A stretch of DNA of 42,957 nt from an uncultured Bacteroidales bacterium. Lineage in GTDB: Bacteria; Bacteroidota; Bacteroidia; Bacteroidales; P3. The notes beneath the pieces are model-generated. The model saw nothing but the letters and a program-made list of their open reading frames with translations, searched no databases and was not told the origin of the DNA. The DNA is taken from the NCBI GenBank assembly GCA_947177315.1, contig CAMWTX010000001.1:1-42957 (forward strand). Direction: 5' to 3'. A program made the translations under genes and the position numbers. Shown here one piece after another: positions 1 to 42,957 of this stretch. Positions within the stretch are counted from its first letter, which is position 1. Every line of letters starts with the position of its first letter.

Positions 1-49
1 ATCTACACGCGTAAGATCGTCGGCAGCGTCAGATGTGTATCAGAGCCCG
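1..49. other. Illumina Nextera i5 library adapter (technical artefact, not genomic)
   Basis: nt 1-8 ATCTACAC (3' end of P5). nt 9-16 GCGTAAGA sits in the 8-nt index slot and matches my memory of index 517. nt 17-30 TCGTCGGCAGCGTC. nt 31-49 AGATGTGTATcAGAGcCcG is the Tn5 mosaic end AGATGTGTATAAGAGACAG with 3 A>C differences. Confidence 0.9.
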
Positions 50-1544
50 GTTTTCCTGCACCGGCCGGCTTCCGGAGAATGCCGCCCCAACGCACGAACC
101 CGCCCCCCTCTTTCCGCATTACGCCGACGGCATCCATATTCCCTGCAATATCGCGCCTTTGAATTTTACGCTGCCCGACACGGTAAAGAAGGCCATCATC
201 GGCATCACCTCATCGAGCGCGCGGAAAGTGTTTTCCGTAAAGCAAAAGGTATCTATCCCAATAACTTTCTGGAAAGAACTCCTGGCCGCCGCCCGAGAGG
301 GAAAACAAGACACCATCCGGCTTGAAATAGCCTTGCGCGGCGCTTCGGGAAACTATACCTCCTACCCGCCCCTGCGCTGGATTGTCTGCCCCGAGCCGAT
401 CGACCCCTACCTCTCCTACCGCTTGGTGCAGCCTACCGCCGGGGCTTACAAGGTGCTGGAACTGCGGCAGCGGTGTCTGGAAAACTTTGAGGAATCTGTT
501 TTGATTTCGAACCAAGAAATGGGCGGAAACTGCTTTAACTGCCACACCTACGACCAAGGGAACGCGGACCGCATGATGATTCACCTGCGCAAACCTTCGG
601 AAGGTTCTCTGTTTTTTGAAAACGGAAACGTGCAAAAGATCCGTCTGCCCGAAACACAAAAGGCCTTGGCGCACCTGCCCGATTCGTTGCGGATGCCGCT
701 CCATTTCGTCTATGCCGCCTGGCATCCCCAGGGACAATATATCGCTTTCTGCACCAATATCCTGGGCATTACCGGCTATGCAGCGCACCGGCAATACCTG
801 AACCTGCTCGACAGTGCCTCGAACATCCTTCTCTACCATCCGGAAAAACGGGGCATCTCTTTGCCGACCGCTCTTTGGACCGCGGATTACGAGGAAACCT
901 GGCCGGCCTGGAGCCCCGACGGGAAATGGCTCTATTTCTGCCGCGCGCCCAAAACAAGCCCCGATACCGTGGCGCGTTATCCCGAATGGGGGGAACGGGT
1001 AAAGCATATCCATTTCGATCTATGCCGTATCGCTTTTGATGCCCCAACGGGAACCTTTGCCGATTCGGTGCAGGTGGTGCTCGCTTCGGAACCCGGCAAA
1101 AGCTATTCGGTGCCAAGGCTTCATCCGGATGGAAAACACCTGCTGCTGTGCCGCAGCTTGTTCAATTCCGTGCCTTACCATGCGGAAGGGGATTTGGTGC
1201 TGCTCGACTTGAAAAATCCTCAGGATGCCTTTTCCGGCGGCAATCCGGCGGACATCCTCAATTCCGCCGAAAGCGAGAGCTGGCACGAATGGAGCGGCAA
1301 CGGAGCCTGGGTGGTGTTCGGCAGCAAGCGGCAGGACGGGCATTACACACTGCCGTATATCGCCTATTTCAACGGGGAACAGTTCGAAAAACCTTTTGTC
1401 CTGCCGCAGAAAAGCCCCCGTTTCTACCAGACTAACCTGCGGGCTTTCAACCTGCCTACCTTCGTGCGCAACGCTTCTCCGGTAACACCCCGCCTGGCGG
1501 CGCAGGGCAAAGAATCGCCGGCGCTTCCCATCGACCTGCTGTAA
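33..1544 (+). CDS. CXXCH-motif / PD40 beta-propeller lipoprotein-like protein, paralog 1 (5'-truncated by the contig end)
   Basis: The ORF's ATG at 33 lies inside the adapter, so the true N-terminus is missing. The product aligns along its length with the 3217..4812 product. It has CFNCH at nt 531-545 and PD40-type motifs WPAWSPDGKWLYF and WSGNGAWVVFGSKRQDGHY. The residues SCTG align with the lipobox cysteine region of the paralog. Confidence 0.85.
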   Translation: MCIRARFSCTGRLPENAAPTHEPAPLFPHYADGIHIPCNIAPLNFTLPDTVKKAIIGITSSSARKVFSVKQKVSIPITFWKELLAAAREGKQDTIRLEIALRGASGNYTSYPPLRWIVCPEPIDPYLSYRLVQPTAGAYKVLELRQRCLENFEESVLISNQEMGGNCFNCHTYDQGNADRMMIHLRKPSEGSLFFENGNVQKIRLPETQKALAHLPDSLRMPLHFVYAAWHPQGQYIAFCTNILGITGYAAHRQYLNLLDSASNILLYHPEKRGISLPTALWTADYEETWPAWSPDGKWLYFCRAPKTSPDTVARYPEWGERVKHIHFDLCRIAFDAPTGTFADSVQVVLASEPGKSYSVPRLHPDGKHLLLCRSLFNSVPYHAEGDLVLLDLKNPQDAFSGGNPADILNSAESESWHEWSGNGAWVVFGSKRQDGHYTLPYIAYFNGEQFEKPFVLPQKSPRFYQTNLRAFNLPTFVRNASPVTPRLAAQGKESPALPIDLL

Positions 1545-1619
1545 AATCTTTCACAATTTCTTGTTTTTTCATGCTTTTCCTCTTTCCGGAAGGAATGCTG
1601 TCTGTTATTAATAAATTTC

Positions 1620-1627
1620 TAACTTTG
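1620..1627 (+). promoter_or_regulatory. Bacteroidetes-type -7 promoter box TAACTTTG
   Basis: Exact match to TAnnTTTG, 42 nt upstream of the ATG at 1669. The nifJ box has the same sequence and spacing. Confidence 0.45.
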
Positions 1628-1668
1628 CAAAGGTTTGTCCGGAGCGGTGGCCGCTTCGGAAACAAGTT

Positions 1669-3213
1669 TTGCAGGCGGTGCGAGGAAAAAAACTACGTGC
1701 TTTTTTGCCTTATCTGGCGGCGGCCTTGCTGCTGGCGGGCGGCGGCTTATGCTTCTACGAGCTGTTCCTGAGCGTGGGGCGGCATTCTTTCTTTACTTTC
1801 CAATCGGATTTCCTGGCCTGTTTCATGCCGTGGAACGCCCATCTGTACATGTATCCGGGGCAGCCCTACGGTTCGGGGGATTTGCTCACGGCCTTTGCCG
1901 GGCAGTTCTACCGAGGCTGGGGTGCGGTGGCCTATCAGGTGGCGGCGGGTCTGCTGTGGGTGCTTCTGTTTACCTTTCTGTGCCGGATTCTGTGGGTGAA
2001 CCGCCTGCGGGAAGGCATCGGGAAAAAGCTTGTGCTTTGGGGGCTTCCGGCCTTCTGGGCCTTGGTTTTTCTGACATGCCAGGTGGGGCTCGCCTTCTCG
2101 AACCAAAATACCTACTGGGGCTTTAAAGATTACAAACTCGGGCGGATTCTGATGAAAACGGAACGCCTGGTGATGGAGAACCGTTACGAAGAAGCCTTGC
2201 AACTGGCCGACCGGTACTGGTTCTCGCATCCCTGTTCCATCGACGATGTGGTGACGGGCCGCAATTCGCTCTACGCGGGATTGTCGCAAACCGAGATTCT
2301 CTTCCGTCTTGACCTGGCGGCCTATACCCGGGTGGCTCTCCTGGGCGCGCACCGGCTCAACGAGGATTTCTTTACGTATTACCGGGTGCCCGAAATATAC
2401 GGGCAAATCGAGGAAGCGGGCGCTCCGGCGGGAACGTTGATATCGGTGTTCCGCAACCGGCTCACGGGCAACCATACGGCGGTCTATAGCCAGATCATGA
2501 ACGTGATGGAAACCGAGGGAATGAGTTATTTCCTGCTGGAACAGTCGGTTTTTTCGGCCTTGGCCTGCCAACAATACGGCTTGGCGGACAAATACATCCG
2601 CCTGCTGGAGAACACGCTCTTTTACCGCAAGGATGCCTCGCTTTACCGGCAGGTTTCGGAATACCTGCAGCACCGAACCGCAACGGCATCCCCCAAAACA
2701 CGCGCCCTGGCGGAACAAATCAAAAGGGAGCGGAACAAATCGCTGACGGACTATATCTACACCAGCGGAAGCGGGGAAGCGGAGGCGCGCGAATTATGGC
2801 GGCAACGGCCCGCGGCATCGCTCGAAAATCTGGAATATATCGCCTTGACAGACCTGCTCTACAAACGCACCGACAGCGTGATGGCGCGCATGGGCGACTA
2901 CCTGCGCCTGAGCGGACAGACCCAACCGCCTTACCGACTGCCGGCGGCCTGGCAGGAGATGCTGTTGGTGGTGGCGGAGGAACGCCGGGGGCAGCTGCCG
3001 CCTCAGGTGGAGGAATACATGCGCCATCTGGCGTGGAACAACGCGCTGGTAAAGCAGTGCCGGATGTTTTACGGAGAGAGGGAACGCTTGCGGCGCGGCA
3101 TGTCGAGCCCGCAGCAGATTACGCAGGCTTTCGGGCATACTTTTGCCTATAACTACTATTTCAGCCGTTTCGTGACGCCCCGACAGGACGGCAACCACGC
3201 TTTGGCACATTGA
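1669..3213 (+). CDS. multi-pass membrane protein with a large alpha-helical C-terminal domain, function unknown
   Basis: 514-aa ORF with about 4-5 hydrophobic helices in the first 150 aa (LPYLAAALLLAGGGLCFYELFL, VAYQVAAGLLWVLLFTFLCRILW, LVLWGLPAFWALVFLTCQVGLAF). A helical soluble region follows. From memory it resembles the Bacteroidetes DUF6057 type; this is unverified. Its stop codon is 3 nt before the next ATG. Confidence 0.8.
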   Translation: MQAVRGKKLRAFLPYLAAALLLAGGGLCFYELFLSVGRHSFFTFQSDFLACFMPWNAHLYMYPGQPYGSGDLLTAFAGQFYRGWGAVAYQVAAGLLWVLLFTFLCRILWVNRLREGIGKKLVLWGLPAFWALVFLTCQVGLAFSNQNTYWGFKDYKLGRILMKTERLVMENRYEEALQLADRYWFSHPCSIDDVVTGRNSLYAGLSQTEILFRLDLAAYTRVALLGAHRLNEDFFTYYRVPEIYGQIEEAGAPAGTLISVFRNRLTGNHTAVYSQIMNVMETEGMSYFLLEQSVFSALACQQYGLADKYIRLLENTLFYRKDASLYRQVSEYLQHRTATASPKTRALAEQIKRERNKSLTDYIYTSGSGEAEARELWRQRPAASLENLEYIALTDLLYKRTDSVMARMGDYLRLSGQTQPPYRLPAAWQEMLLVVAEERRGQLPPQVEEYMRHLAWNNALVKQCRMFYGERERLRRGMSSPQQITQAFGHTFAYNYYFSRFVTPRQDGNHALAH

Positions 3214-3216
3214 CGG

Positions 3217-4812
3217 ATGAAGACTTTCTTTTTTTTCTTGGGTAAATTTTTATGCTGCGGTGGGCTGTTGCTCTCTTCCTGCACCTGCCGGCCTCCGCAA
3301 GATAGCGTGGCGAAAAGCCTCGAAAGCGCGCCTCTCTTTCCCGATTACGAAGACGGAACGCATATCCCCTGCAATATCGCGCCCTTGAATTTCAGGCTTC
3401 CCGACACGGTAAAAACGGCGTGGCTGGAAATCCGGTCGTCTTCGGCGCAAAAAGCCTTTAAAACGGATAAAAACGTGGTTTTTCCGCTCAGATTCTGGAA
3501 ACGGCTCACGGCGGCCGCCCGGGAAAGACAGGATACGGTAAGGCTTTGCATCACCGTGCGCGGCATCTCGGGAAATTATACCTCCTATCCGCCCCTGCGC
3601 TGGATTGTCTGCCCCGAACCGATCGACCCCTATCTCACCTACCGCCTGCTGCCGTCGGTGGAGGGGGCTTACAGTGTCGGTAAAGGGGGTTACAACGTGA
3701 TGGAACTCCGCGAAAGGCATCTGGAGGATTTCGGGGAACGGGTCTTGCTTTCCAATGAGAACATGCGGCGGAACTGTTTCAACTGCCATACCTCACCGGC
3801 CGGAAACCCGGATAAAATGCTGGTGCATCTGCGCCGTCCGTCGGAGGGTTCGCTGTTTTTCGAGGGCGAGAACGTATCGAAAAAAGTGCCGCCGGCCCTG
3901 GAAAAAGCCGGACTGGAACTGCCCGACTCGCTGCGGATGCCCTTAAGTTTCGTCTATCCGGCCTGGCATCCAAAAGAAGAATGGATTGCCTTGAGCACCA
4001 ATATGATAGGCATCAACGGCTATACGCCGCAGCATCAGTACGTGGATATTCTCGACAGTGCCTGCAATATCGTGCTGTACAACACCCGTACCGACCAAAT
4101 CGTACTGGACCGGGCGCTCTGGACCGCGGATTACGAGGAAACCTGGCCGGCCTGGAGCCCTGACGGGAAATGGCTCTATTTCTGCCGCGCGCCCAAGACA
4201 AGCCCCGATACTGTGGCGCGTTATCCCGAAATAGGAGAACGGGTAAGGCATATCCGTTTCGACCTATGCCGTATCGCCTTTGATGCCTCAACGGGAACTT
4301 TTGCCGATTCGGTGCAGACGCTCCTATATGCCGCACCGGGTTGCAGCTATTCGATGCCGCGCGTACGGCCCGACGGCAAGGGGGTGTTGCTCTGCCGCGC
4401 CCTGTTCAACTCCATTCCCTACCACGCTTTGGGCGATCTGCTGTATCTCCGCACGGAGGGTTTGGAGAAACAAGATTCCGCCTCGGACGGGTCGGAAAAC
4501 CCGGCGGATATCCTGAACTCCGAAGAAAGCGAGAGCTGGCACGACTGGAGCGGCAACGGGGCCTGGGTGGTGTTCGGCAGCAAGCGGCAGAACGGCCACT
4601 ATGAACTGCCGTATATCGCCTATTTCGACGGGGAACATTTCGGAAAGCCTTTCCTGTTGCCGCAGAAGAACGGAAATTTTTACCATGCCAACCTGCGGCT
4701 GTTCAACCTGCCCACTTTCGCACGGGCGGCCTCGCCGGTCTGCCCCCGTCTGGCGGCGGAGGGCAAAGATTTGCCGGCACAGGAAATCGAACTGCGCCTG
4801 GGGGCAAAATAA
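3217..4812 (+). CDS. CXXCH-motif / PD40 beta-propeller lipoprotein, paralog 2 (full length)
   Basis: Signal peptide with lipobox-like end (MKTFFFFLGKFLCCGGLLLSSC). CFNCH at nt 3775-3789. PD40/TolB-like motifs WPAWSPDGKWLYF and WSGNGAWVVFGSKRQNGHY. Translationally coupled to the upstream membrane protein gene. Confidence 0.85.
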   Translation: MKTFFFFLGKFLCCGGLLLSSCTCRPPQDSVAKSLESAPLFPDYEDGTHIPCNIAPLNFRLPDTVKTAWLEIRSSSAQKAFKTDKNVVFPLRFWKRLTAAARERQDTVRLCITVRGISGNYTSYPPLRWIVCPEPIDPYLTYRLLPSVEGAYSVGKGGYNVMELRERHLEDFGERVLLSNENMRRNCFNCHTSPAGNPDKMLVHLRRPSEGSLFFEGENVSKKVPPALEKAGLELPDSLRMPLSFVYPAWHPKEEWIALSTNMIGINGYTPQHQYVDILDSACNIVLYNTRTDQIVLDRALWTADYEETWPAWSPDGKWLYFCRAPKTSPDTVARYPEIGERVRHIRFDLCRIAFDASTGTFADSVQTLLYAAPGCSYSMPRVRPDGKGVLLCRALFNSIPYHALGDLLYLRTEGLEKQDSASDGSENPADILNSEESESWHDWSGNGAWVVFGSKRQNGHYELPYIAYFDGEHFGKPFLLPQKNGNFYHANLRLFNLPTFARAASPVCPRLAAEGKDLPAQEIELRLGAK

Positions 4813-4815
4813 GGG

Positions 4816-7611
4816 CTATTTTTTCTTGAGAAGCCGTTTTATTTCGTCTAACTTATTGAGTGCCTGAATCGGCGTAAGGCTATCGACATCCAAATCCAGA
4901 ATCTCGTCGCGGATTTTTTCGAGCAAAGGATCGTCTAATTGGATAAAGCTGAGTTGATAGGGTTTATCCGTTTTGTTATCAGTGTTTTCAGGACTTCCCG
5001 AAAGGAGTTTTCCGGGGGTTTTGGCCTGCGGAGAATCGGCTGTATCTCCGCCGGCGGGCATCGGGGCGGCTGTGGAAGCGGCAGAAGAAGACAAAATGGC
5101 AGGAATTCCGCCTTCCGGATGCCGGTCGCGTTCCAGGTCGGCGAGCATTTCCTGAGCGCGGTCGAGCACGAATTTCGGCATCCCCGCCATCTGCGCCACA
5201 TGAATCCCGAAACTGTGTTCCGAACCGCCTTGCGCCAAGGTGCGCAAAAAAATCATCTTGCCGTTTTCTTCCTTGACCCGGATATGGTGGTTCTCGATAT
5301 GCGGAAATGTCTCCGCCATGCGGTTGAGTTCGTGGTAATGCGTGGCAAAGAGCACTTTGGCTTCCTTACGGGGCTGTTCGTGCAGGTATTCGGCAATCGC
5401 CCAGGCAATGGAAATGCCGTCGTAAGTGCTTGTACCCCTGCCTATTTCGTCGAGAAGAACCAGGGAGCGCGCCGTTAAGTTGTTGAGAATGTTGGCCGTT
5501 TCGTTCATCTCCACCATGAACGTACTTTCGCCCAGGGCAATGTTGTCGGTGGCACCGACACGGGTAAAAATCTTGTCAACCAAGCCGATAACGGCTTCCT
5601 GCGCCGGCACGAAACAACCCATCTGCGCCATGAGCACTATCAGCGCAGTCTGCCGTAGCACCGCCGACTTACCCGACATATTGGGGCCGGTAATCATCAT
5701 GATGCGGCAAGCGTCGTGCCTGAACGTAATGTCGTTGGGTACGTATTTCTGCCCGGCAGGCATGTGTCTTTCGATTACCGGATGCCTGCCCTGCTTGATG
5801 TATAAATCGTAGTGGTCAACTACCTTGGGGCGCACGTATTCATTCTGTGCCGCCACATCGGCAAACGACAGCATAACATCCAAAAAAGCAATGTTCTGCA
5901 CCGATGTCTGCATACGTTTTATAAAGCCGTTGGCAAAGGTCTGCACGGCTTGGTAAAGGCGGGCTTCGAGCGTAGTGATTTTTTCCTGCGCCGTAAGTAC
6001 TTTTTCTTCGTAAACCTTCAGGTCTTCGGTGGTGTAGCGCTCGGCGTTGGTTAGGGTCTGTTTACGTACCCACGAAGCGGGCACTTTGTCTTTGTGCGAC
6101 TGACTTACCTCAAAATAATAGCCATAGACGTTGTTGAAGCCTATCTTGAGTGTGGAAATGCCGGTGTTCTTCTGTTCCTGCTGCTGGAGTTCAGACAGAT
6201 ACTCCCTGCCCGAAAAGGCTATTTTGCGCAATTCGTCGAGCTCGGCGTCCGCGCCCCGGGCAATCACGTTGCCTTTGGAAAGCATGGCGGGGGCTTCGGC
6301 ATCGAGCCATTTTTCGAGATATTCGGAGAGTTCCCGGCAGGAATCCAGGTCTTTTATCCTGTTGTACAGCACATTGTCTTGAGCGGAGGCGATGTTTTCC
6401 CGAGCCCAGGCAATGATTTTTTCCAATACGTCCAAAGACAGTTTGAGCTGCCAGAGCTCGCGCGGCTGTATCTTCATGGCCGCCACTTTCGACAGCATGC
6501 GTTCCAGATCGCCGATCCGGGCGAGGGAATCGCGCAGGGCGGCGGCGTGTTCGCGGTTTTGGAACAGGTATTCCACATGCGAAAGCCGGTAATCGATTTC
6601 CTGAACGTCTTTGAGCGGCAGGCATATCATGCGGCGCAACAGGCGCGAGCCCATCGGGGTGTTGGTCTGGTTCAGCACCGCATACAGCGAGTTCTGTGCC
6701 TGCACATCGGCATCCACGTAAGAGGCCGAGGGCTGGAGCAACTCCAGATTACGTAGGGTGAACGCGTCCATCCACACATACTTTTCTTCTGCGATTTTTT
6801 GCAGGGAAGATACGTGTGCGGAAAGTTCGTGCTTGCTCTCAATTAAGTAGTGCAGACAGGCGGCGGCCGCTATCTGCGCTGCCGGCATATCCTCCACACC
6901 GAAACCTTTCAACGAATTGGTTTTGAAGTGCTCCAACAGGAGTTTTTTGGCAAAGTCGGGCTTGAAAACCCAGTCTTCGAATACTGTAATATAGTAGCGG
7001 TTTCCGAAAAGGCGGCAGAATTCGTCGCGGTACGTTTTCGGCATCACGACTTCGGAGGGTTGAAAATTGTCCAGCAACTTTTGGATATATTCTTCGTTGC
7101 CTTCCGCCACAAAGAATTCGCCCGTACTTACATCCAGGAACGAAATGCCGTATTTTGTTTTGGAAAAGGGGGCGAGGCCGCAGAGAAAATTGTTTTTTCC
7201 GGTTTCCAGCAACCGGTCGTTCATGGCGATGCCCGGCGTGATGAGCTCGCTCACGCCCCGCTTCACGAGTTTTTTGGTGAGCTTGGGGTCTTCCAGCTGT
7301 TCGCAGATGGCCACCTTGCCGCCGGCTTTCACCAGTTTGTAAAGGTAGGTTTCCAGCGCATGGTGGGGAAATCCCGCCAGTTCGGTATAGGTATGGGCGC
7401 CGCTGGCCTTGCGGGTCAAAACGATGTTCAGCACCTTGGAGGCGAACACGGCGTCTTCGCCGAAGGTTTCGTAAAAGTCGCCCACCCGGAACAGGAGAAC
7501 CGCCTCCGGATGCTGCCGTTTGATTTCGTAATACTGCTTCATCAAAGGCGTTTCCACAAACTTTTCCTTGTCTCCTTTTTCCTTGGAGCGGTTTTCCTTC
7601 TTTTCCTGCAT
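4816..7611 (-). CDS. mutS: DNA mismatch repair protein MutS
   Basis: N-terminal TPLMKQYYEIKRQHPEAVLLFRVGDFYETF and Walker A GPNMSGKS in ITGPNMSGKSAVLRQTALIVLMAQMGCFVPA. The ORF is open up to 7665, but I prefer Met at 7611 because a TATTTTTG -7 box (7663-7670) lies inside the 18-codon extension. Confidence 0.95.
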   Translation of the reverse strand: MQEKKENRSKEKGDKEKFVETPLMKQYYEIKRQHPEAVLLFRVGDFYETFGEDAVFASKVLNIVLTRKASGAHTYTELAGFPHHALETYLYKLVKAGGKVAICEQLEDPKLTKKLVKRGVSELITPGIAMNDRLLETGKNNFLCGLAPFSKTKYGISFLDVSTGEFFVAEGNEEYIQKLLDNFQPSEVVMPKTYRDEFCRLFGNRYYITVFEDWVFKPDFAKKLLLEHFKTNSLKGFGVEDMPAAQIAAAACLHYLIESKHELSAHVSSLQKIAEEKYVWMDAFTLRNLELLQPSASYVDADVQAQNSLYAVLNQTNTPMGSRLLRRMICLPLKDVQEIDYRLSHVEYLFQNREHAAALRDSLARIGDLERMLSKVAAMKIQPRELWQLKLSLDVLEKIIAWARENIASAQDNVLYNRIKDLDSCRELSEYLEKWLDAEAPAMLSKGNVIARGADAELDELRKIAFSGREYLSELQQQEQKNTGISTLKIGFNNVYGYYFEVSQSHKDKVPASWVRKQTLTNAERYTTEDLKVYEEKVLTAQEKITTLEARLYQAVQTFANGFIKRMQTSVQNIAFLDVMLSFADVAAQNEYVRPKVVDHYDLYIKQGRHPVIERHMPAGQKYVPNDITFRHDACRIMMITGPNMSGKSAVLRQTALIVLMAQMGCFVPAQEAVIGLVDKIFTRVGATDNIALGESTFMVEMNETANILNNLTARSLVLLDEIGRGTSTYDGISIAWAIAEYLHEQPRKEAKVLFATHYHELNRMAETFPHIENHHIRVKEENGKMIFLRTLAQGGSEHSFGIHVAQMAGMPKFVLDRAQEMLADLERDRHPEGGIPAILSSSAASTAAPMPAGGDTADSPQAKTPGKLLSGSPENTDNKTDKPYQLSFIQLDDPLLEKIRDEILDLDVDSLTPIQALNKLDEIKRLLKKK

Positions 7612-10231: not shown

Positions 10232-10239
10232 CAAAACTA
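10232..10239 (-). promoter_or_regulatory. candidate -7 box TAGTTTTG for ybeY
   Basis: The plus strand reads CAAAACTA. It overlaps the stop codon of the upstream gene, about 100 nt upstream of the ybeY ATG. Confidence 0.3.
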
Positions 10240-13200
10240 TTTATTCGTGTTTTCAAACAAAAAGTCCTGCACTTTTTTCTTGTAATACGGACGCAGTTCG
10301 GGATAGGAAAAACGGAGTAAATCGTTTCCCTGCATTTTTTTCTTGGCGGCGTTCTCCACACTGTCGCCCATAAAAGGAGCGAACGGATTTCCCGCCTTCG
10401 ACTCCCGCCTGTCGTCGCGTTCACGTTTGAGTTCGGCATTCTCAGCTTCCAGCAAACGGCTCTCGATATTCTTTTGACGCGACATCACACGGTCGTTCAA
10501 AATGCGGTTCACCAAATCGCGTTCGGTTGTTTCCATATCTCCCAAGATACGGTTGTAAAGTCCTGCGGCGCCAGGATTCGTTATTTTATCCTTGCGCATC
10601 TGTTCCTGAAGCATACGCCTTATCATTTCCTGTTTGGCGGCGGCACGCGCAAAAGATTCCGAAACCTTTTCCTCCGAAATCTGTTCACCTTGGGAATTGC
10701 CCGATTCGCCCGGCCTGCTTTCCTTGCCCTGCGGAGCGGTTTGCGGCTGACCCTGCTTCTGCATCTGTTCCAACATCTTTTTCAATTCATCCAACTGACG
10801 GTTCAAATCCTGCTGCATCTGCTGCAAGGACTGCTTGCCTTGCTTCATCATTTGCTGCAGAGACGGAATCGGCATCGAAGAACTTTTTTCGCCCGGTTTA
10901 GGACAGGACATCTGCGGTTTGCCCTTCTGCTTTTTCTTGGAAGAACCGCTGTTTCCCTTCATGTTCATCTGTTGCTCCATCCTGTCTAAAGACTCGGAGA
11001 GCAGCAAGGCCAGGTTGTTCAGCGAAGTCATGGTGTATTGCTGGCGCGCCAGGGCCCGGCTGTTGGCCGTATTATAGTGCGAATAATAGACGTTGTTCAT
11101 TGCCAGCAGCAAATCCAGAGCCTCACGGCTGTAAGACAGCATATCCTTTACCTCCCTGTCGGTAGTCAGAGCCACTTGCGGCTGTCGCCGGGCAATGGCA
11201 TTGACGCTGTCGGCCACAAAACGTATCTCGGTATTCAAGGCCGCCTGGGCGCGGATCTGTTCCGCATAACGCGGATCGTTCAGATGGGTCTTGCCCAAAG
11301 TCTCCATCAATTTTTCCTGCTGCACCGAAATACGCACCGTCGATTTGAGCAAAAGCCGGATAAAATCGGCATCCTCCGCTTGGTTCTCCTCTTCTATCTG
11401 CTGCATCTGCCCTGACAGATTGTCGGCCAACTGCTGCAAATCCTGTTCGGTTTTTTCCTGATCCTGACGCGCCGATTTGTCGTCTTTGCGCTGTAAATCC
11501 TCCTTGGTGTTCTCGATATCCTGACGCGCTTTTTCCAAAAGGGAATCCGGCAACGAAAACGAAGTTTTCTTTTCCAGACCCTCGTTCAAATCCTCCACCT
11601 TTTGGAGATCCTTTTCCAAACGGTTCCTGTCTTTCTGCAAATCTTCCTGCAGCTTCAACGCGCTGTCGGCCGATACATGCCGCATTTTCTCACCGGTTTC
11701 CCGGCTTTTTTCCGAAAGCGCCTGAGCGTCGGAAACGGCTTGCCGTAATTTATTTTCAAATTCTAATTGTTTGTATAAATTTAAATTACGCTCAATATCA
11801 CGGCTCAATAAATCCTTCTGACGCTTCACATCCTCCAAAGCGTCCGTAATCTTTTCGCGGGGAGCGTTCTGCCGCATGAGTTCCTGCAATTCCTGCAGTT
11901 TCTTCATCGTGGCATCGTCAAAAAGCTTGTCCATAAGCTCCTGCAACTGCCGCTGTTTTTCCTGCAATTCCGGGTCGGCCTCTCCCAACTCGCTTTCCAG
12001 ACGCTGTTTCTCCTTGATTTCCTCCGACAGTTCTTTATACGTTTCCCGCAGGCTCTCCTGCTGTTCCATCAACAAATCCACCCGCTTCATGTCCTGCCAC
12101 GAAAGCTGCTTTTTGGAGAGCAGATCCTGTACGAATTCCTGCAGTTCCCGGTCAAAATTCCTTACGGAACGCAACGAAAGCGAAAACTTCTCGTCCACCG
12201 AAGCCGAAGTTCTGCCAACTTCTTCCCTTACTTCCTCCTGCGACATCTTCCGGTAGAAGAACGTTTGGGAATACACGGGCTTGAAAGGATAGAAAGCGTC
12301 GTTGTCGCGCAGCTCGAAACCATAACTGAGCTCATCGCCTGGTTGTGGATTAAATTGATCTATATCAAAATAATAAGTAAATTCCTGACTCAATCCGTAA
12401 GCCCTCAGCGGCAAGGTGTCGTAAAACGTCCATTCGTTGCCGGTGGCCGCATTGGTGCAGGAAAGCTTGAAAAGCAGGGAATGAAAACCATAGTCGTCGC
12501 TGATCATGCCGTGAAAATAACGGCGGTATATCCGGTTGCTGTCGAAAGAAGGCAACACCTCGATGCGCGGATAGGCATCCGGAAAGACCTCGACGGAAAA
12601 AGAGGCGGTATCGGTCTTTATATCTTCAAAAGCCTTGGGTATCAAACAGTAACTGCACGAACTGAAAAACTGCCCGGAAAAAGAGAAAACAGGCGGCTGC
12701 GCCCGGGCTTCCTTTAAGGAAACATCCTCGTTAAGCAGTTCACCCGAAGGTAAAAAGCCGAACAGAAGCTTTTCGGCATGGTCTATCTTCAAATCCCAAT
12801 CCACTTTCGTGCCGGCGGGAACCTGCAGGTTGAGCGAATTTTCCACCACTTCGGGTTTCCGGTTCATATAAGGCGGATAGCGGAGCGTTACCTTCATGCC
12901 TGACATCAAAGGCTTGTAATTGACTTCCAGCACATAAGGAGCGCTCCTATACTTGCCGGCCACCAGATGGAACGCTACCGGTTGCCTCACTTTCCGGAAC
13001 ACATGCGAAAAAGACACCGGCGAATTCCGGCGGCACGGAAACAAACGGCCCTCCGTTTCCACAAACACTTCCGCCGGCAGGATATCGCCCTGAACGTCTA
13101 TGTCAAGCGTAAAATCATCTTCATACGCCACACGCAGACTTTCGTTCCCGATAAGGATCGAAAAAGGAAACTCGCGCTCAAAATAACGGCCGTAACGCAC

Positions 13201-13752
13201 GATTCTTTCCGAAGAACCGATAATCCTCGGATTAACGAAATAAATGGCCGTACCCGTTGCCAAAACCAGCAGGAAAGCCAATATATAGCGTCGGTTCGCC
13301 CTGAACCTGACCGCCTTTTCGAAACGGTACGGCACAAAACGGCGGCTTATCTGTTCGATGGCGGCTTCCAGCAAAGTGTACAAAGCCCCGTTCTCCTGTA
13401 GCTGACGCCTCAAATCGAGCACATTGTACAGTCTGTCGTCCAACTCCGGATAACGCAAAGCCAGGTAGCGCGCCGCCTCTTCGTGGCTCATGCGGGAGAA
13501 CCATCCCCTGCCCTGTCCCCAAGGATAAAGCACCAGCATTCCCAAGCCTGCCGAAAACAATGCGGTGAAAGACCAAAATACTGTTCTGCGTACATTTCCC
13601 GGCAAATAAAAAAGATATTCCAGGAGGCAGAACACAAGAAAGACCGCCAAAGAAGCCGCCAAAAGCACAAAAAAGCCTCTCCATGCCTTGTTGGCATAGT
13701 ACCGGAATATAAAAGCATCCAGTTTGGCTATGAAATCTTCGTATGCGGCCAT
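10237..13752 (-). CDS. large membrane-anchored coiled-coil protein, function unknown
   Basis: 1171 aa. Two or three N-terminal TM helices (FFVLLAASLAVFLVFCLLEYLF, FWSFTALFSAGLGMLVLYPW), a central beta-rich region, then about 500 aa of charged E/K/Q/L heptad-like sequence and a Q-rich low-complexity stretch. It may be DUF4175-like; that is from memory and unverified. Confidence 0.8.
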   Translation of the reverse strand: MAAYEDFIAKLDAFIFRYYANKAWRGFFVLLAASLAVFLVFCLLEYLFYLPGNVRRTVFWSFTALFSAGLGMLVLYPWGQGRGWFSRMSHEEAARYLALRYPELDDRLYNVLDLRRQLQENGALYTLLEAAIEQISRRFVPYRFEKAVRFRANRRYILAFLLVLATGTAIYFVNPRIIGSSERIVRYGRYFEREFPFSILIGNESLRVAYEDDFTLDIDVQGDILPAEVFVETEGRLFPCRRNSPVSFSHVFRKVRQPVAFHLVAGKYRSAPYVLEVNYKPLMSGMKVTLRYPPYMNRKPEVVENSLNLQVPAGTKVDWDLKIDHAEKLLFGFLPSGELLNEDVSLKEARAQPPVFSFSGQFFSSCSYCLIPKAFEDIKTDTASFSVEVFPDAYPRIEVLPSFDSNRIYRRYFHGMISDDYGFHSLLFKLSCTNAATGNEWTFYDTLPLRAYGLSQEFTYYFDIDQFNPQPGDELSYGFELRDNDAFYPFKPVYSQTFFYRKMSQEEVREEVGRTSASVDEKFSLSLRSVRNFDRELQEFVQDLLSKKQLSWQDMKRVDLLMEQQESLRETYKELSEEIKEKQRLESELGEADPELQEKQRQLQELMDKLFDDATMKKLQELQELMRQNAPREKITDALEDVKRQKDLLSRDIERNLNLYKQLEFENKLRQAVSDAQALSEKSRETGEKMRHVSADSALKLQEDLQKDRNRLEKDLQKVEDLNEGLEKKTSFSLPDSLLEKARQDIENTKEDLQRKDDKSARQDQEKTEQDLQQLADNLSGQMQQIEEENQAEDADFIRLLLKSTVRISVQQEKLMETLGKTHLNDPRYAEQIRAQAALNTEIRFVADSVNAIARRQPQVALTTDREVKDMLSYSREALDLLLAMNNVYYSHYNTANSRALARQQYTMTSLNNLALLLSESLDRMEQQMNMKGNSGSSKKKQKGKPQMSCPKPGEKSSSMPIPSLQQMMKQGKQSLQQMQQDLNRQLDELKKMLEQMQKQGQPQTAPQGKESRPGESGNSQGEQISEEKVSESFARAAAKQEMIRRMLQEQMRKDKITNPGAAGLYNRILGDMETTERDLVNRILNDRVMSRQKNIESRLLEAENAELKRERDDRRESKAGNPFAPFMGDSVENAAKKKMQGNDLLRFSYPELRPYYKKKVQDFLFENTNK

Positions 13753-24145: not shown

Positions 24146-26308
24146 TTAAATCTTGGCTATCTTGATTATCTGCCAGCCGTTGGCGGTGAGAATCTTGGCG
24201 ATATAGGCGCCCGGCGACAGATTTTCGATATTGATTTCCTGTTTCTGCACGCCTTGGGCAAAGTGCTGCGCCAGTACCCGCTGCCCGTTGGAGGCATAGA
24301 GTTCCACCGTGTAGAAATCGGAACCGCAGCCGTCAACGGTAATCCTGCCGTTGGCGGGGTTGGGATAGACCCGCAGCGCGGAAGCCGTTTCCAGCGGTTC
24401 GGCCGCCACCGTGGGGCTGCCTGTGAACACCGCCTCAATCTGGGTTTCGGCGGTTACGGTGTATTCCAGGAGCGTATCCCTGCCGAGGCTCTTGTCGTAT
24501 TCCATCCAGCGGGAAAACGTGCAGCCCGGTGCAGGGTGGGCGACAAGCACTATTTTTTCGTCTTTCAGGAAAGCGCCGGCGCCTTCCACCCTGCCGCAGC
24601 CTTCGGGGCGGAGGGTCGTTTCCACCTTGTACAGTTCGGGAACATTCAGGTCTGTGCCGGTACGGAGCGAAGTGTCGCCTTCATACAGGGCGCGAACCCC
24701 GAAACGGTATATCCGGCTCATTTTCGTTATCCCGTGCCGGTATTCGGTTTCTTCGGTTTCTCCCACCAACACGTTATCGACAAAAACCTGATACGAAACC
24801 ACTTTTTGGTCGGTCTGGGGCTTCTGCCAGGAGAGTTTTACCTGCAGGTTATCCCGTTCCGCCCGGAGCGATTCGGGTCGAGGAACACGGTTTTTAGACA
24901 CGACCCGGAGCGCGGCGTCGGCGTCGATGATACCCGAATTGGCGCAGATGTTCTTGTTGTTGCTTTCATCGATGCTTTGCGCCGAAGACATCAATATATC
25001 GCGCATCAGGTAGGAATCGAGCGTGGAATCGACCGAAAGCAGCAGCCCGCAGAGCCCGCTCACGATGGGGGTCGCCATCGAAGTGCCATACATGCCGTCG
25101 TAGTATTGTCCCGTCAGTTCGGAATGTCCGCTTGTGCGGTATTTCTGCGAGGTGCAATAGGTGGAACTGAGGATGCAGTCTTGAGATTCTTCGTTGTTTC
25201 TGTTCATCATGAAGCCGCCCGGGGAGGCCACCGTTACCCATTCGCCGAAATTGGAGAAAGAGGAAATCTGGCGGTTGTCGTTGACGGAAGCCACCGAAAT
25301 GACCCCCGGCAGGTAGCCCGGATACATCGGGCTGTCTTTGTAACGGTCGTTGCCCGCCGCCGCCACGACAACAATGCCGTTGTCGATGCAGGACTGCACG
25401 ATGGCGCGGTCTGTCTCGGTAATCATATACCGGCCCCATGAAAGACTGATCACTTTGGCGCCGTGTTCGGCCGCCCAGCTGATGCCGGTAAAACCGTTGT
25501 CCATCGCCAGACCCGAAGGATCCGTTCCGGGGCAGGAAACGCCCATAAGCGTGATGCCCGAACCGATGGAGGCGATGCCGATGCCGTTGCCGCGGATGGC
25601 GCCCACCGCACCGGCAGTATGTGTGCCATGCGACCAATTATAAGAGGGACAGTTGATTACATTTGGACATTGGGGATCTTGCGGAACATCGGAAGGAGGG
25701 GCGGAATTGCCGGTCTGTCCGGTTCTTACATTATACTGGTTTTCGGGAGCGATGCCCAGATCGGGGTGGTTGCCCCAAATGGCGTTATCCACCACCGCCA
25801 CCTTGATGTTCGCCTGTCCGGTCTGTTGCGCCCAGGCTTCTTCCGCATGAATCAGCTTGAGATGCCAGGAACCGTAACCGGTTTGGTACAGAGGGTCTGT
25901 GCCTTCTTCGGCTTTCGGAGCGGGCGTTTCGGCCATCTGCCCCTGCACGTAATAGACGGGAATCCTTTCCACCAGTTCGATACGGCTGTCCTGTCGCAGT
26001 TGGCGAACCAGTTCTTCGGCCTTGGCCGTGCTGTCGAACTTTAACTCGAATGTGCGTTCCAGCACAGGTTCTCCCAAGGTGCGCATACAGAACATGGTCT
26101 GATGCAGACCGTAGGCTTTCTGCAATTTTTGAAGGGATGCCTCTTTCTCGATGGCGGCAAAGCGGCTGTTGTTGGCCGTTTTGGGGCTTGCCAAAGCCTT
26201 GAAACGCACGTAAACGGCGTTTTCCACATAATCGGCATTCTGCGCCACGGCTTGCGGAAGGGTCATCGCGGCACAGAACAGGAGGCAGGATAAAAGTTTT
26301 GTCTTCAT
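24146..26308 (-). CDS. S8 family (subtilisin-like) serine peptidase with T9SS C-terminal domain
   Basis: Signal peptide MKTKLLSCLLFCAAMTLPQAVAQ and an I9-like propeptide. Catalytic blocks VAVVDNAIW (Asp), SHGTHTAGAVGA (His), AAAGND (Asn) and GTSMATPIVSG (Ser). There is a Listeria-Bacteroides-repeat-like segment. CTD: LRVYPNPANGRITV...GAYIAKILTANGWQIIKIAKI. Confidence 0.9.
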   Translation of the reverse strand: MKTKLLSCLLFCAAMTLPQAVAQNADYVENAVYVRFKALASPKTANNSRFAAIEKEASLQKLQKAYGLHQTMFCMRTLGEPVLERTFELKFDSTAKAEELVRQLRQDSRIELVERIPVYYVQGQMAETPAPKAEEGTDPLYQTGYGSWHLKLIHAEEAWAQQTGQANIKVAVVDNAIWGNHPDLGIAPENQYNVRTGQTGNSAPPSDVPQDPQCPNVINCPSYNWSHGTHTAGAVGAIRGNGIGIASIGSGITLMGVSCPGTDPSGLAMDNGFTGISWAAEHGAKVISLSWGRYMITETDRAIVQSCIDNGIVVVAAAGNDRYKDSPMYPGYLPGVISVASVNDNRQISSFSNFGEWVTVASPGGFMMNRNNEESQDCILSSTYCTSQKYRTSGHSELTGQYYDGMYGTSMATPIVSGLCGLLLSVDSTLDSYLMRDILMSSAQSIDESNNKNICANSGIIDADAALRVVSKNRVPRPESLRAERDNLQVKLSWQKPQTDQKVVSYQVFVDNVLVGETEETEYRHGITKMSRIYRFGVRALYEGDTSLRTGTDLNVPELYKVETTLRPEGCGRVEGAGAFLKDEKIVLVAHPAPGCTFSRWMEYDKSLGRDTLLEYTVTAETQIEAVFTGSPTVAAEPLETASALRVYPNPANGRITVDGCGSDFYTVELYASNGQRVLAQHFAQGVQKQEINIENLSPGAYIAKILTANGWQIIKIAKI

Positions 26309-26310
26309 GG

Positions 26311-28218
26311 TTAGCGTTTCATCAGTTTATGGGTAAAGACGCCTTGTTCGTTTTCAACCTGCACGAAATACAGGCCCGAAACCAAAGAGGCGGTTTCCAG
26401 TTCAAAGAGGTTCTTGCCTGCCTGCAGCAGGATATTTTCGGTGCGGACGGTTTTTCCCTGCGCGTTGAAGATACGGAGCGTCGCCTTGCCGCCCTTGACG
26501 GCATCGAAGACCACGGAGCAGTGTTCGCCGGCAGGATTGGGATAGAGCGAAAGTGTCCGTCCGGCTGCCGGTCTCGCATCGTTGGCGGCGGAATGGCCGG
26601 GTTTGAGGTAGAAAGATTGCGAAACCTGATTGTTCTTGCTGTTCTGCAGGAAAATCACCGCCGCCATGTTTTCATAGCTCGAATAAATCTCCGGGCTTGA
26701 TTTGTCGAAGGTATATTCAAAGTCTTTTTCGACCACGCCGCCGGTGGTTTCAATCGAAATCGGTGTACCCGTTATGCCGGGAACCATCTGGCGAACCACA
26801 TTGTAGAGGTCTTTTTCCCCGTTATGCAGGGTGGACATCAGGTGGATGGAATCTTCGATAAGGCAGATCACCAGGTTGTAGTCGTTCATATCGGGCAGGT
26901 AGTTGGTAACCTTGGCGTGAATCCTGAAGGTTCCGTCTTCCCGCTCCAACGAGGCACTGATGCCGGTAGGTATCGTAACCTGTGCGAAACGGGCGATGGA
27001 ATCGCGCAGGCGGTGACCGATGGTGGTGTCGGTAGGCCTGAAGACCCTTCCGTTCATATATACGGTAGGAGCGGCGTTCACATTGTAATGCTCGGCGCGG
27101 GCCAGAGAGTGTTCCGTTACCGTGGGATCACCCACCGAGGGGATGTCCACTTGGTATTTTACCACCGAGAAATGGCCGCTGTTGTCGGGCACATTGGCTT
27201 TCTGTTCGATAAAGATGGGGTGCATCCAGCTGTTCAGGGGCGCGCAGTTGGAGCACATTCCGCTGGAGAACATCTCCAACAGCAGGTTTTTGCGCGGCAG
27301 GGAAGACTCCTTGACGCTGTAAAACATCGTGGAAGTGGTGTCGGAAGCGATGTTCTTGCCGTTGATTTTTTCCACCCATATCGAAAAGGTATGGTTTCCT
27401 TCGGTGTTAATCAATGTTGAAGTGGTGATATTCAATGTTTTATATGGTTCAATCTTAACATCCGAGAAAATTTCGCGCACCACTTCCCCACCGTCGGCCT
27501 GACGGCAGAGCGTATAGGAGACAATGGGGTCGGAACCGGTATTGAGCAAGGCGGCCTTGAAGATTATGTTTTGGGGGATACCCTGCAGGGTTACCGAAGG
27601 GGAGGCCGCCATTTCGGTAACCAGAGCCGCCACCGGTTCGGTTTCCAGAACCGCCACGTCATCCACACAGACCATGTATTTGCCGGAAGAGTTCTGTATA
27701 AAGGCGATATAGACTTCCTTGCCGGCGTATTCGGAAAGGTCTATCGTGTAATAGGTCCAGCTGGAGGGAGCAACCGCCACGGTTTGCAGGCTTGCCGTAA
27801 AGGACTCTTTTTCTTTGCCCGAAACAGAGATCTTCACTTCAAAACCGTCGCGGTATTCGGTATCCACACGTTTGGCGCGGAAAACGAGAACGGGATTCTT
27901 GGCCGAAGCGAGGTTGATGGCCGGGGTCACCATCCAGCGGTCGGCCACAGCATTTGCCTGAGTAAAGAACGAAACGGCGGCCGCCTGCCGGGAACCGTCC
28001 TTGTCCACCCACACGTTCCATGCCTGTGTAAAGTGAGACAGATCGTCGGGGGAGCTCGCCGGGGTATTGTTGTCGTTGTACAGTGTCCACGATTCCTTTA
28101 CCTGGCCAACCGAGAAGCGGTCGGTGGCATCTTGAAAATCATCATGGAACAATACTTGTGCCGGAGCCTGCATGAGCAGGGCCAACAAAGCAAGGCTTGA
28201 GAATGCAAAACGTTTCAT
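26311..28218 (-). CDS. secreted protein: choice-of-anchor-J/MAM-like N-domain + Omp28-like thioredoxin-fold domain (CSNC) + T9SS C-terminal domain
   Basis: Signal peptide MKRFAFSSLALLALLMQAPAQ. N-domain motifs DDFQD...WTLYNDNN...WMVTPAINL...YIAFIQNS. LLLEMFSSGMCSNCAP resembles the Omp28-family CxxC block. CTD: LSLYPNPAGEHCSVVF...GLYFVQVENEQGVFTHKLMKR. Its stop is 2 nt from the S8 gene start. Confidence 0.8.
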   Translation of the reverse strand: MKRFAFSSLALLALLMQAPAQVLFHDDFQDATDRFSVGQVKESWTLYNDNNTPASSPDDLSHFTQAWNVWVDKDGSRQAAAVSFFTQANAVADRWMVTPAINLASAKNPVLVFRAKRVDTEYRDGFEVKISVSGKEKESFTASLQTVAVAPSSWTYYTIDLSEYAGKEVYIAFIQNSSGKYMVCVDDVAVLETEPVAALVTEMAASPSVTLQGIPQNIIFKAALLNTGSDPIVSYTLCRQADGGEVVREIFSDVKIEPYKTLNITTSTLINTEGNHTFSIWVEKINGKNIASDTTSTMFYSVKESSLPRKNLLLEMFSSGMCSNCAPLNSWMHPIFIEQKANVPDNSGHFSVVKYQVDIPSVGDPTVTEHSLARAEHYNVNAAPTVYMNGRVFRPTDTTIGHRLRDSIARFAQVTIPTGISASLEREDGTFRIHAKVTNYLPDMNDYNLVICLIEDSIHLMSTLHNGEKDLYNVVRQMVPGITGTPISIETTGGVVEKDFEYTFDKSSPEIYSSYENMAAVIFLQNSKNNQVSQSFYLKPGHSAANDARPAAGRTLSLYPNPAGEHCSVVFDAVKGGKATLRIFNAQGKTVRTENILLQAGKNLFELETASLVSGLYFVQVENEQGVFTHKLMKR

Positions 28219-28225
28219 GGTATTT

Positions 28226-29851: not shown

Positions 29852-30307
29852 TTTTAATACAAGGTATTATAGAAATCGTAAAGGTAAAGATACAATATGG
29901 AAGTTAAAAATATCCGATGAGCCAAAAAAAGTTTTATAAGCTTTTGAAAAATTTTCTTGACAAAGCATCCCCCGATTGTTTTTAAATTATTTATAATAAA
30001 TAAGATAATTATCATTTGAGAGGGTTTTCAAGGCTTTACCTTTGGGGGCGGCAGCCCGTAAGGAGGCTTTTTTACGCCGATATTTCCGCCGCTCTTTTTA
30101 TGGTTCTTTTAATAATTTGTATTTTTGTTTTTTAATGGGATGCGAAATGAAATGTTGCGATAAGGTTACAGAAAGTTTTCACCCCTTATTATACAACTTC
30201 GGTAAAGAAAAAGTAAAATTGCAAATGAAGGATTGGAGTACGACGATACGATTCTGCTGAACAGCCTCACGGAAAAAACGCTTGTACTCCGCAAAAATAA
30301 TCATAAA

Positions 30308-34117: not shown

Positions 34118-34179
34118 AATCGGGAAAGCCCCCCAAGGGTTTTCTTTAAAAGAAATAGAAACAACAAAAACCAAACAGA

Positions 34180-38309: not shown

Positions 38310-38382
38310 GGTCACGTAGCTCAGCCGGTAGAGCACATCCCTTTTAAGGATGGGGCCCTGGGTTCGAATCCCAGCGTGACCA
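38310..38382 (+). tRNA. tRNA-Lys (anticodon UUU)
   Basis: Hand-folded 73-nt cloverleaf. Acceptor GGTCACG/CGTGACC, D arm GCTC-AGCCGGTA-GAGC, anticodon arm CATCC-CTTTTAA-GGATG, T arm CTGGG-TTCGAAT-CCCAG, discriminator A. CCA is not encoded. Confidence 0.95.
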
Positions 38383-42906: not shown

Positions 42907-42957
42907 TAGCGGGGGCAGGATTCGAACCTACGACCTCCGGGTTATGAGCCCGACGAG
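42907..42957 (-). tRNA. tRNA-Met (anticodon CAU), initiator-like, 3' portion only (runs off the window)
   Basis: The minus strand reads CTCGTCGGGCTCATAACCCGGAGGTCGTAGGTTCGAATCCTGCCCCCGCTA. This is near-identical in layout to E. coli tRNA-fMet. It has three G-C pairs closing the anticodon stem (GGG/CCC), a CTCATAA loop, and T arm GTAGG-TTCGAAT-CCTGC. Confidence 0.85.

Follow-up and report, generated by a model that had tools for sequence, protein, structure and literature searches.

What do two paralogous beta-propeller lipoproteins, each with a single c-type haem-attachment motif, have to do with the membrane protein encoded between them at the start of a Bacteroidales contig? The stretch analysed here (the window) comprises positions 1 to 42,957 of contig CAMWTX010000001.1 (assembly GCA_947177315.1) from an uncultured Bacteroidales bacterium. 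Its first three genes, all on the forward strand, encode paralog A (~46..1544, truncated at its 5' end), the 514-codon protein M (1669..3213) and paralog B (3217..4812, full length, 531 aa). The original prediction, made from the letters of the sequence alone, had placed these three open reading frames (ORFs) as we find them and had proposed an envelope module for redox chemistry, sensing or trafficking. In what follows P denotes the propeller family of A and B, and D the family of M. We find that P and D form a conserved gene pair that is occasionally fused into one polypeptide, that the haem-attachment motif is present in every complete homologue of P that we collected, and that profile, structure and literature searches place none of the three proteins in a family with a characterised role. 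The observation thus stands as genuine and highly non-random, and the system that it concerns is uncharacterised. We propose that the pair forms a two-subunit periplasmic module, in which P is a haem-c propeller lipoprotein and D, a DUF6057 protein, is its tether or docking chaperone, and we put the probability of this reading at about one half.

The case for haem begins with the motif itself, CxNCH, which reads CFNCH in both paralogs (nt 531-545 in A and nt 3775-3789 in B, both +) and occurs exactly once in each. Among the 93 complete homologues from 83 loci, all 93 carry CxNCH exactly once and in the same alignment column, so that the column is invariant in the family alignments; the sole ORF without the motif is cut by a contig end. 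Invariance of this kind had been set up as a check on the original prediction, and the prediction passed it. In alignments of 26, 95 and 96 sequences, with about 30-35% overall identity to B, residues C187, N189, C190 and H191 show either invariance or a conservation of 99% and above. A His directly after the second Cys is the signature of haem c attachment, unlike CXXC oxidoreductases or common zinc sites. P combines the conserved CXXCH with the second hallmark of a c-type cytochrome, export through the Sec pathway, as indicated in B by a signal peptide with the lipobox LSSC (3217..3282, +; Cys22 at nt 3280-3282). As far as sequence can tell, P may carry covalently bound haem c. Attachment would be feasible in Bacteroidales because system II is available in the order, where B. 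thetaiotaomicron, P. gingivalis and Prevotella intermedia provide documented cases of the system II cytochrome c synthase and of NrfAH (PMC13645880, PMC10434189). With system II and NrfAH present in Bacteroidales, a haem motif next to a fermentative core based on pyruvate:ferredoxin oxidoreductase (PFOR), which had been considered unexpected, is not surprising.

Conservation in P extends well beyond the motif. At the same overall identity to B, conservation reaches 95% or more at each of the residues R143, R167, R206, R457, H204, H251, H442, D280, Y247 and C323, a pattern suggestive of a cofactor or substrate pocket. C323 (nt 4183-4185), which lies in the PD40 motif SPDGxxLYFC and outside both the CXXCH and the lipobox, is kept in at least 95% of members and in all four of the fusion proteins described below; possible roles for it are those of a free thiol or of a ligand to haem or a metal. 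The lipobox Cys22 is retained by 98% of the 96 sequences. In Bacteroidetes an acidic stretch right after the lipobox Cys acts as the signal for lipoprotein export to the surface. Because two or more acidic residues follow the Cys in just 7 of 94 members, a surface-exposed P is disfavoured and we take P to face the periplasm.

Further evidence for a defined module comes from the gene that accompanies P. We searched the 83 loci for D ORFs with a hidden Markov model iterated from an alignment of the M clade, and found D as the direct, same-strand neighbour of P in 81 of them, with both exceptions cut by contig ends. The synteny of propeller gene and membrane gene, the other comparative check proposed with the original prediction, is therefore borne out. 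Precomputed Pfam annotation also places DUF6057 beside P in the three diverse contigs that were inspected first. The order is D-then-P at 52 loci and P-then-D at 15, and about 10 loci are tandem arrays (for example P-D-P and P-D-P-D-P). Nearly all of the estimated D-to-P junctions (61 of 66) lie within -32 to +31 nt, and mostly within -4 to +15 nt; the commonest values are -4 (12 cases) and +3 (6 cases). In the window the stop codon of M (3211-3213) lies 3 nt before the ATG of B (3217), and the pair in Parabacteroides distasonis has the same 3-nt junction; the operon with translational coupling that had been read from the single junction in the window is supported by those of other lineages. 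The pair is kept in Sedimentisphaerales, where both proteins are confirmed by Pfam, and in Phycisphaerae, while the locus from KSB1 is cut at the P gene. Where one genome holds several pairs, these are deeply diverged, with identities of 30-45% between P proteins and 19-30% between D proteins.

Two paralogs flanking a membrane protein, as originally described, is what the window contains, but the recurring unit is the D-then-P pair. A and B are paralogous, with 67% identity over 507 aligned residues, and their DNA can be aligned in blocks of 72-83% identity with a start-to-start spacing of ~3.24 kb. The shared N-terminal block and the PD40 signatures WPAWSPDGKWLYF and WSGNGAWVVFGSKRQ.GHY are found at the expected positions in both. 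The two represent old orthologue groups, as shown by one homologue (P0009) that is 88% identical to A and 65% to B, and a second (P0002) that is 83% identical to B and 64% to A. We regard A as an extra, anciently diverged P paralog that has no D of its own and shares M, so that the unit in the window is M followed by B.

Natural fusions connect the two families more directly. Among the best 150 representatives we identified four single polypeptides in which DUF6057 forms the N-terminal and P the C-terminal part (P0181, 994 aa; P0281, 860 aa; P0173, 857 aa; P0212, 787 aa). The fusion junctions differ, there is no signal peptide or lipobox at the join, and CxNCH is kept in all four; P0181 is one uninterrupted 2985-nt ORF on a contig of 17,972 bp. 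We consider the four fusions to have arisen independently, so that the two genes have been joined on at least four occasions. Such fusions constitute evidence of the Rosetta-stone kind for a joint action of D and P.

The original prediction could assign no function to any of the three proteins. This stands insofar as none belongs to a characterised family, but M can be assigned to the Pfam family DUF6057 (PF19529), with 45 bits against a cut-off of 29.8 (E 9.3e-12) over profile positions 170-568 only. The whole profile is matched by the partners from P. distasonis (E 9e-163) and from a Sedimentisphaerales metagenome-assembled genome (MAG; E 1e-112). Canonical members have about seven transmembrane (TM) helices, a loop-1 motif (E/D)-Q-x-Q-L-F ... 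P-G-G ... Q-F-F and a C-terminal helical domain. M falls short of this full-length architecture and is a reduced variant, with a Gly at the conserved acidic position and with three TM helices predicted by the AlphaFold2 (AF2) model and by hydropathy (residues 11-29, 87-105 and 121-139; nt 1699-1755, 1927-1983 and 2029-2085, +), rather than the four to five first suggested. Its clade consists of short forms of ~510 aa with three TM helices and variably Gly or Glu at the loop-1 acidic position; the TM module thus shrinks from about seven helices to three in the lineage of the window while the pairing persists. The AF2 model of M (predicted local distance difference test, pLDDT, 84.8) consists of the three TM helices and an alpha-solenoid of ~350 residues (residues ~152-500; 2122..3168, +) that resembles tetratricopeptide repeats (TPR). 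A Foldseek search of this model against the PDB gave nothing below E 0.5, with weak TPR-type matches only, and PDB sequence and profile searches with M and with canonical DUF6057 proteins returned no related solved structure. Our literature search found no paper mentioning DUF6057 or PF19529.

The predicted topology of M leaves an N-terminus of ~10 residues and one loop of ~12 residues in the cytoplasm, and the sensing role that had been among the suggestions is unlikely, given that M exposes almost nothing on that side. We place the solenoid of D in the periplasm, on the same side as P, because of the basic N-terminus, the odd number of TM helices (3 or ~7) and the D-P fusions. In a broad D alignment with M among its members, the 85% level is attained at F, G, Q, A, L, K, Y, P and E positions only, and the alignments show no His, Cys or Met conserved across the DUF6057 family; a C-terminal His is invariant in the M clade alone. 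The C-termini of DUF6057 proteins are rich in aromatic residues, as in FGHTFAYNYYFSRF of M (residues 487-514, nt 3127-3210) and YGDTYWYYYMFK of P. distasonis (locus L035, ~5900-5958). One possibility is that this aromatic motif is a docking element for the propeller.

For P, Pfam recognises the PD40 repeat only (46.5 bits in A and 41.7 bits in B, cut-off 20.9). The AF2 model of B, built from the 95-sequence alignment, has a pLDDT of 90.6 and a predicted template modelling (TM) score, pTM, of 0.91. It consists of the signal helix, a beta-sandwich (residues ~30-135; 3304..3621, +) that holds the invariant P-x-Y...P-x-N-I-A-P-L-N-F, and an all-beta propeller of PD40 type (residues ~139-528; 3631..4800, +); CFNCH is located in a loop and short strand at residues 187-192, inside the beta-rich body. 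Foldseek matches of the model in the PDB are generic propellers only, the best being TolB (E 3e-12, TM-score 0.4-0.5, root-mean-square deviation (rmsd) ~11 Å), followed by S9 peptidases/DPP4, cd1 nitrite reductase, hydrazine synthase beta and thiocyanate dehydrogenase (E 1e-6 to 1e-5, TM-score ~0.3). Sequence and profile searches of the PDB with P found no related solved structure and returned isolated PD40 repeats only, and searches of the literature found nothing on a PD40 propeller with a CXXCH, nor on nrfA in Muribaculaceae.

Three known kinds of protein invite comparison with P. The cytochrome-propeller enzymes (NirS/NirN of the cd1 type, hydrazine synthase and thiocyanate dehydrogenase) are likewise periplasmic propellers with haem or metal cofactors. 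In all of these enzymes haem c is carried by a cytochrome domain of its own, alpha-helical in fold, or by another subunit (for hydrazine synthase, PMC12758564). P, in contrast, has a single motif inside a beta-rich body and no cytochrome domain, and it superimposes poorly on these enzymes (TM-score ~0.3, rmsd >11 Å). The PDB profile search with P reached hydrazine synthase beta (5c2v_B) at E 0.7 and gave nothing for NirS. The original prediction had called the likeness one of architecture only, and we agree, as TolB, cd1 nitrite reductase and hydrazine synthase beta are no more than generic propeller matches in Foldseek, with TM-scores of 0.3-0.5. A link to the hydrazine synthase homologues was considered and rejected, since these are beta-gamma fusions with at least two haem motifs and a CCP-like domain (PMC12758564), a different architecture. 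The second comparison is with TolB, which resembles P in having a PD40-type propeller after an N-terminal domain and, as a structure, is the best match in the PDB. TolB works in the periplasm with a membrane-anchored helical partner, TolA, much as P would with D. Unlike TolB, P is a lipoprotein with a beta-sandwich N-domain, a CxNCH, a DUF6057 partner and several copies per genome, and it is encoded outside tol-pal operons. The third is Helicobacter DsbI, in which a DsbB-like membrane domain is fused to a periplasmic beta-propeller for envelope redox chemistry (PMC4597128). DsbI offers a precedent for coupling a polytopic membrane module to a periplasmic propeller, but its membrane part has redox cysteines, whereas DUF6057 has no conserved Cys.

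For D the closest analogy lies among the helpers of cytochrome c maturation. CcmI/CycH and NrfG are periplasm-facing TPR proteins, inner-membrane-tethered or periplasmic, that are dedicated to a c-type cytochrome client. By analogy, D may be compared with them as a TM anchor with a TPR-like solenoid that is paired 1:1 with a CXXCH protein. It differs from them in that canonical D has about seven TM helices and is sometimes fused to P, which is atypical of a chaperone. Family models of CcmI, CycH and NrfG did not match M (E up to 1) or canonical D (E up to 10), and CcmI is absent from system II, the pathway of Bacteroidales (PMC13645880).

The module is widespread. A word-indexed search returned more than 905 P homologues, 873 P clusters at 50% identity were found at E <=1e-30 among 1.84 billion representatives, and species-representative genomes contain at least 545 matching stretches. 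Among the matches listed, the hosts include Parabacteroides distasonis, Bacteroides heparinolyticus, Phocaeicola paurosaccharolyticus, Odoribacter, Alistipes/Rikenellaceae, Tannerellaceae, Dysgonomonas, Muribaculaceae, Prevotella/Segatella and Draconibacterium/Prolixibacteraceae and, outside the phylum, Sedimentisphaerales, Phycisphaerae and KSB1. Genomes often hold several diverged copies. The 83 loci have no universal third gene; the only recurrent neighbours are SusC/SusD (within 6 kb in 28 loci), where the D-P pair sometimes follows SusC-SusD and precedes glycoside hydrolase (GH) genes, and a chorismatase-like FkbO_N plus RidA protein (10 loci). This RidA-type protein of ~380 aa (L041 4518-5666, +; homologues in L016, L018, L044, L051, L053, L059, L065, L075 and L077) stands beside the pair, mostly immediately downstream on the same strand, as it does on the KSB1 contig. 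All seven of the examples scanned have a RidA/L-PSP domain and three of the seven an FkbO/Hyg5-like chorismatase N-domain, the L041 protein having L-PSP only; it may be a facultative third component or coincidental. A scan of all ORFs at the loci for ccsA (WWD motif) and for multihaem proteins detected one multihaem protein only. This neighbour of a P-D pair in a Rikenellaceae MAG (L048 3743-5269, -) is a fusion of a NapC/NirT-type tetrahaem part (four CXXCH) with an FGE-sulfatase domain, an unusual architecture. At another locus, in a Bacteroidales MAG (GCA_023667315.1; L002 13472-17527 and beyond), two proteins with FGE-sulfatase domains are encoded downstream of the D-P pair, as is a gene with a called product of 10,624 residues.

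On the reading that we prefer, P would be exported by Sec as a lipoprotein, after which the Bacteroidales system II synthase (CcsBA) would attach one haem c to C187/C190, with H191 as the proximal ligand. The haem would rest against the propeller, where a pocket for a ligand or substrate would be formed by the His, Arg, Tyr, Asp and Cys residues that are near-invariant in several of the blades, and P would be the redox or catalytic subunit. D would serve as a dedicated membrane tether, or as a docking chaperone, keeping P attached to the inner membrane as part of a 1:1 complex. We read D as a scaffold, and not as an electron carrier or signal transducer, because it has almost no cytoplasmic exposure and no conserved His, Cys or Met, and the scaffold role is further favoured because the lineage of the window tolerates the loss of four TM helices.

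Several observations weigh against this proposal. Neither Pfam nor NCBIfam recognises a cytochrome c domain in P, and the AF2 model has CFNCH in a beta-rich region that is not a classical cytochrome fold. The ccs genes are absent from the 43-kb window, and the loci show no evident electron donor, the neighbouring NapC/NirT-type cytochrome being found at one locus only. A chaperone fused to its client would be unusual. Finally, the acidic residue in loop 1, the first periplasmic loop, of canonical D (E33 in P. distasonis) is near-invariant in 42 members that also have about seven TM helices, and D could itself be an enzyme rather than a passive tether.

More ambitious, and advanced here tentatively, is the possibility that the pair represents a new class of periplasmic haem enzyme, with a c-type haem inside a PD40 propeller and an obligate DUF6057 partner, and with it an unrecognised envelope redox system that has duplicated and diversified in hundreds of Bacteroidales from the gut and the environment and is also found in Planctomycetota and KSB1. 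Each protein alone is of a known structural kind; it is their obligate pairing, the fusions and the haem motif within the propeller that are undescribed.

Of the explanations that differ from ours, the one that survives best dispenses with haem. CxNCH would then be a metal site or a redox or structural disulfide, and a TolB-like, protein-binding propeller would combine with the D solenoid into an envelope complex for structure or trafficking, analogous to TolA-TolB or the TPR-propeller pairs of outer-membrane biogenesis and with no redox chemistry. This would explain why TolB is the best fold match (E 3e-12), why no cytochrome domain is detected around a motif that lies among beta strands, and why D resembles a TPR-type scaffold for protein interaction; AF2 moreover models the motif region confidently without a ligand (pLDDT ~90). 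It fits less well with an Asn and a His of CxNCH that are invariant in 93 of 93 members from three phyla, with the many near-invariant Arg, His, Tyr and Asp residues, which suggest a pocket and not a protein-binding surface, or with TolB equivalog scores of 10-20 bits against cut-offs of 343-405. We regard this explanation as unlikely, if the most serious of the competing ones.

A different view makes D the enzyme. D would be a GT-C-like (glycosyltransferase C-type) protein acting on a membrane-embedded or lipid-linked substrate, P an acceptor-binding or accessory subunit, and M a degenerate, non-catalytic remnant. The conserved loop-1 motif with its near-invariant E33 in 42 canonical members, and the combination of ~7 TM helices with a soluble helical domain, speak for this view. 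Pfam, however, detects nothing beyond DUF6057, and there is no sequence match to a solved GT-C or other enzyme: a profile of the 42 canonical D proteins found no GT-C chain in the PDB, nor did Foldseek with the reduced M. The clade of the window varies the acid (Gly/Glu) and drops four TM helices, yet remains paired with a fully conserved P, and P is far more conserved than D (30-45% against 19-30% identity between paralogs). We hold a catalytic D to be rather improbable.

Doubtful to a greater degree is a role as an accessory of polysaccharide utilization loci (PULs), in which D-P pairs would be glycan-specific devices for periplasmic processing or hand-over that diversify with their PULs in the manner of SusC/SusD. 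Such a role would account for the several deeply diverged pairs per genome and for SusC/SusD within 6 kb at 28 of 83 loci, several of which have D-P following SusC-SusD on the same strand and flanked by GH genes. That frequency (34%) is nevertheless close to chance for PUL-dense genomes, going by our rough estimate of 20-30%, and two thirds of the loci, including the window with its mutS, mnmG and tRNA genes, are without PUL context. The pocket residues of P are also invariant across paralogs, which argues against substrate diversification there.

The remaining idea, that P is the TolB of the Tol-Pal system, has in its favour the best Foldseek match and the names given in databases (the P. distasonis orthologue is a 'TolB family protein' or 'Translocation protein TolB' in NCBI and UniRef), but it is effectively refuted by scores against the TolB equivalogs TIGR02800 and NF002183 (20.2 and 12.1 bits for A, 11 and 10 for B) far below their cut-offs (343 and 405 bits). 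Also against it are the lipoprotein nature and different N-domain of P, its several copies per genome and the absence of tolQRA/pal families from the recurrent neighbours of the 83 loci, the neighbours in the window being the DUF6057 gene, mutS and mnmG. With orthology to TolB rejected on these scores, we consider the database names to be over-annotations.

The ends and spacers of the window locus required some correction. Positions 1-40 are identical to Illumina adapter sequence (40/40; 46/49 over nt 1-49), running from the P5 end (ATCTACAC) through an i5 index (GCGTAAGA) into the Nextera transposase adapter, which leaves untrimmed adapter contamination in the assembly at 1-45. The ATG at nt 33, previously taken as the start of the A ORF, is an artefact because it lies inside this adapter. 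Genomic sequence of A begins at about nt 46, with ~17 codons of the signal peptide missing and the lipobox Cys (FSC) at nt 57-59; in a repeat comparison the lipobox region of B matches nt 53-74 at 91%. The contig break had been taken to suggest further copies upstream, which is not supported. In the orthologous locus of the closest species-representative genome (L005, 71% identity) the order is tRNA-Gly, tRNA-Leu, A-type P, D and B-type P, followed by mutS and mnmG on the opposite strand; its A-type P has an intact LFSC lipobox, and the tRNA genes (2228-2444), with no further copy, lie just upstream of the A-type gene. The 3' end of the window falls inside a tRNA gene (42907-42957, -; further coordinates 38310-38382, +), and both contig ends probably break at tRNA repeats and not at paralog copies.

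The AT-rich spacer between A and M contains TAACTTTG (1620..1627, +), a match to the Bacteroides -7 consensus TAnnTTTG. The -7 box that had been noted is thus present, but the window shows no enrichment of the pattern TANNTTTG, with 20 occurrences where shuffling predicts 22.6, and the position of the box alone suggests a promoter role. A sigma-70 promoter scan gave no match, the sigma-70 model being uninformative for Bacteroidales. Between the box and the start of M is a GC-rich hairpin with a 10-bp stem (1638..1660, +; -19.2 kcal/mol, z-score -2.9) that may be a terminator of A or a structure in the 5' untranslated region. Judging from the N-termini of homologues and a 502-aa database entry, the true start of M is likely GTG 1678 or TTG 1705 rather than TTG 1669.

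The other genes of the window include mutS, mnmG, ybeY, PFOR, cargo proteins of the type IX secretion system (T9SS), DUF4301, an M20 peptidase and EngA, and these neighbours give no hint of the function of the module. Between ybeY and PFOR, a 1171-aa ORF (10237-13752, -) encodes a large uncharacterised protein for which Pfam gave no match up to E 0.01. Large secreted proteins are encoded at 24146-29851 (-) and 30233-38085 (+), with S8 subtilase, Omp28, PKD, fn3 and RGI-lyase domains, and three proteins of this cluster bear C-terminal sorting domains of the T9SS (Por_Secre_tail).

Bacteroidales dominate the mammalian gut, and most of what is known of their envelope redox biology concerns NrfAH, cytochrome bd and fumarate reductase. 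The D-P module is large and old, carries the misleading name 'TolB' in databases, and has neither a publication that we could find nor a solved relative. The invariant motif, the strict pairing and the fusions make the haem hypothesis testable in Parabacteroides distasonis or Bacteroides heparinolyticus. If P carries haem, it would constitute an unrecognised family of c-type cytochromes in organisms that are described as haem auxotrophs with few cytochromes c. It would also represent a new structural solution for binding haem c and would provide the first functional handle on DUF6057.

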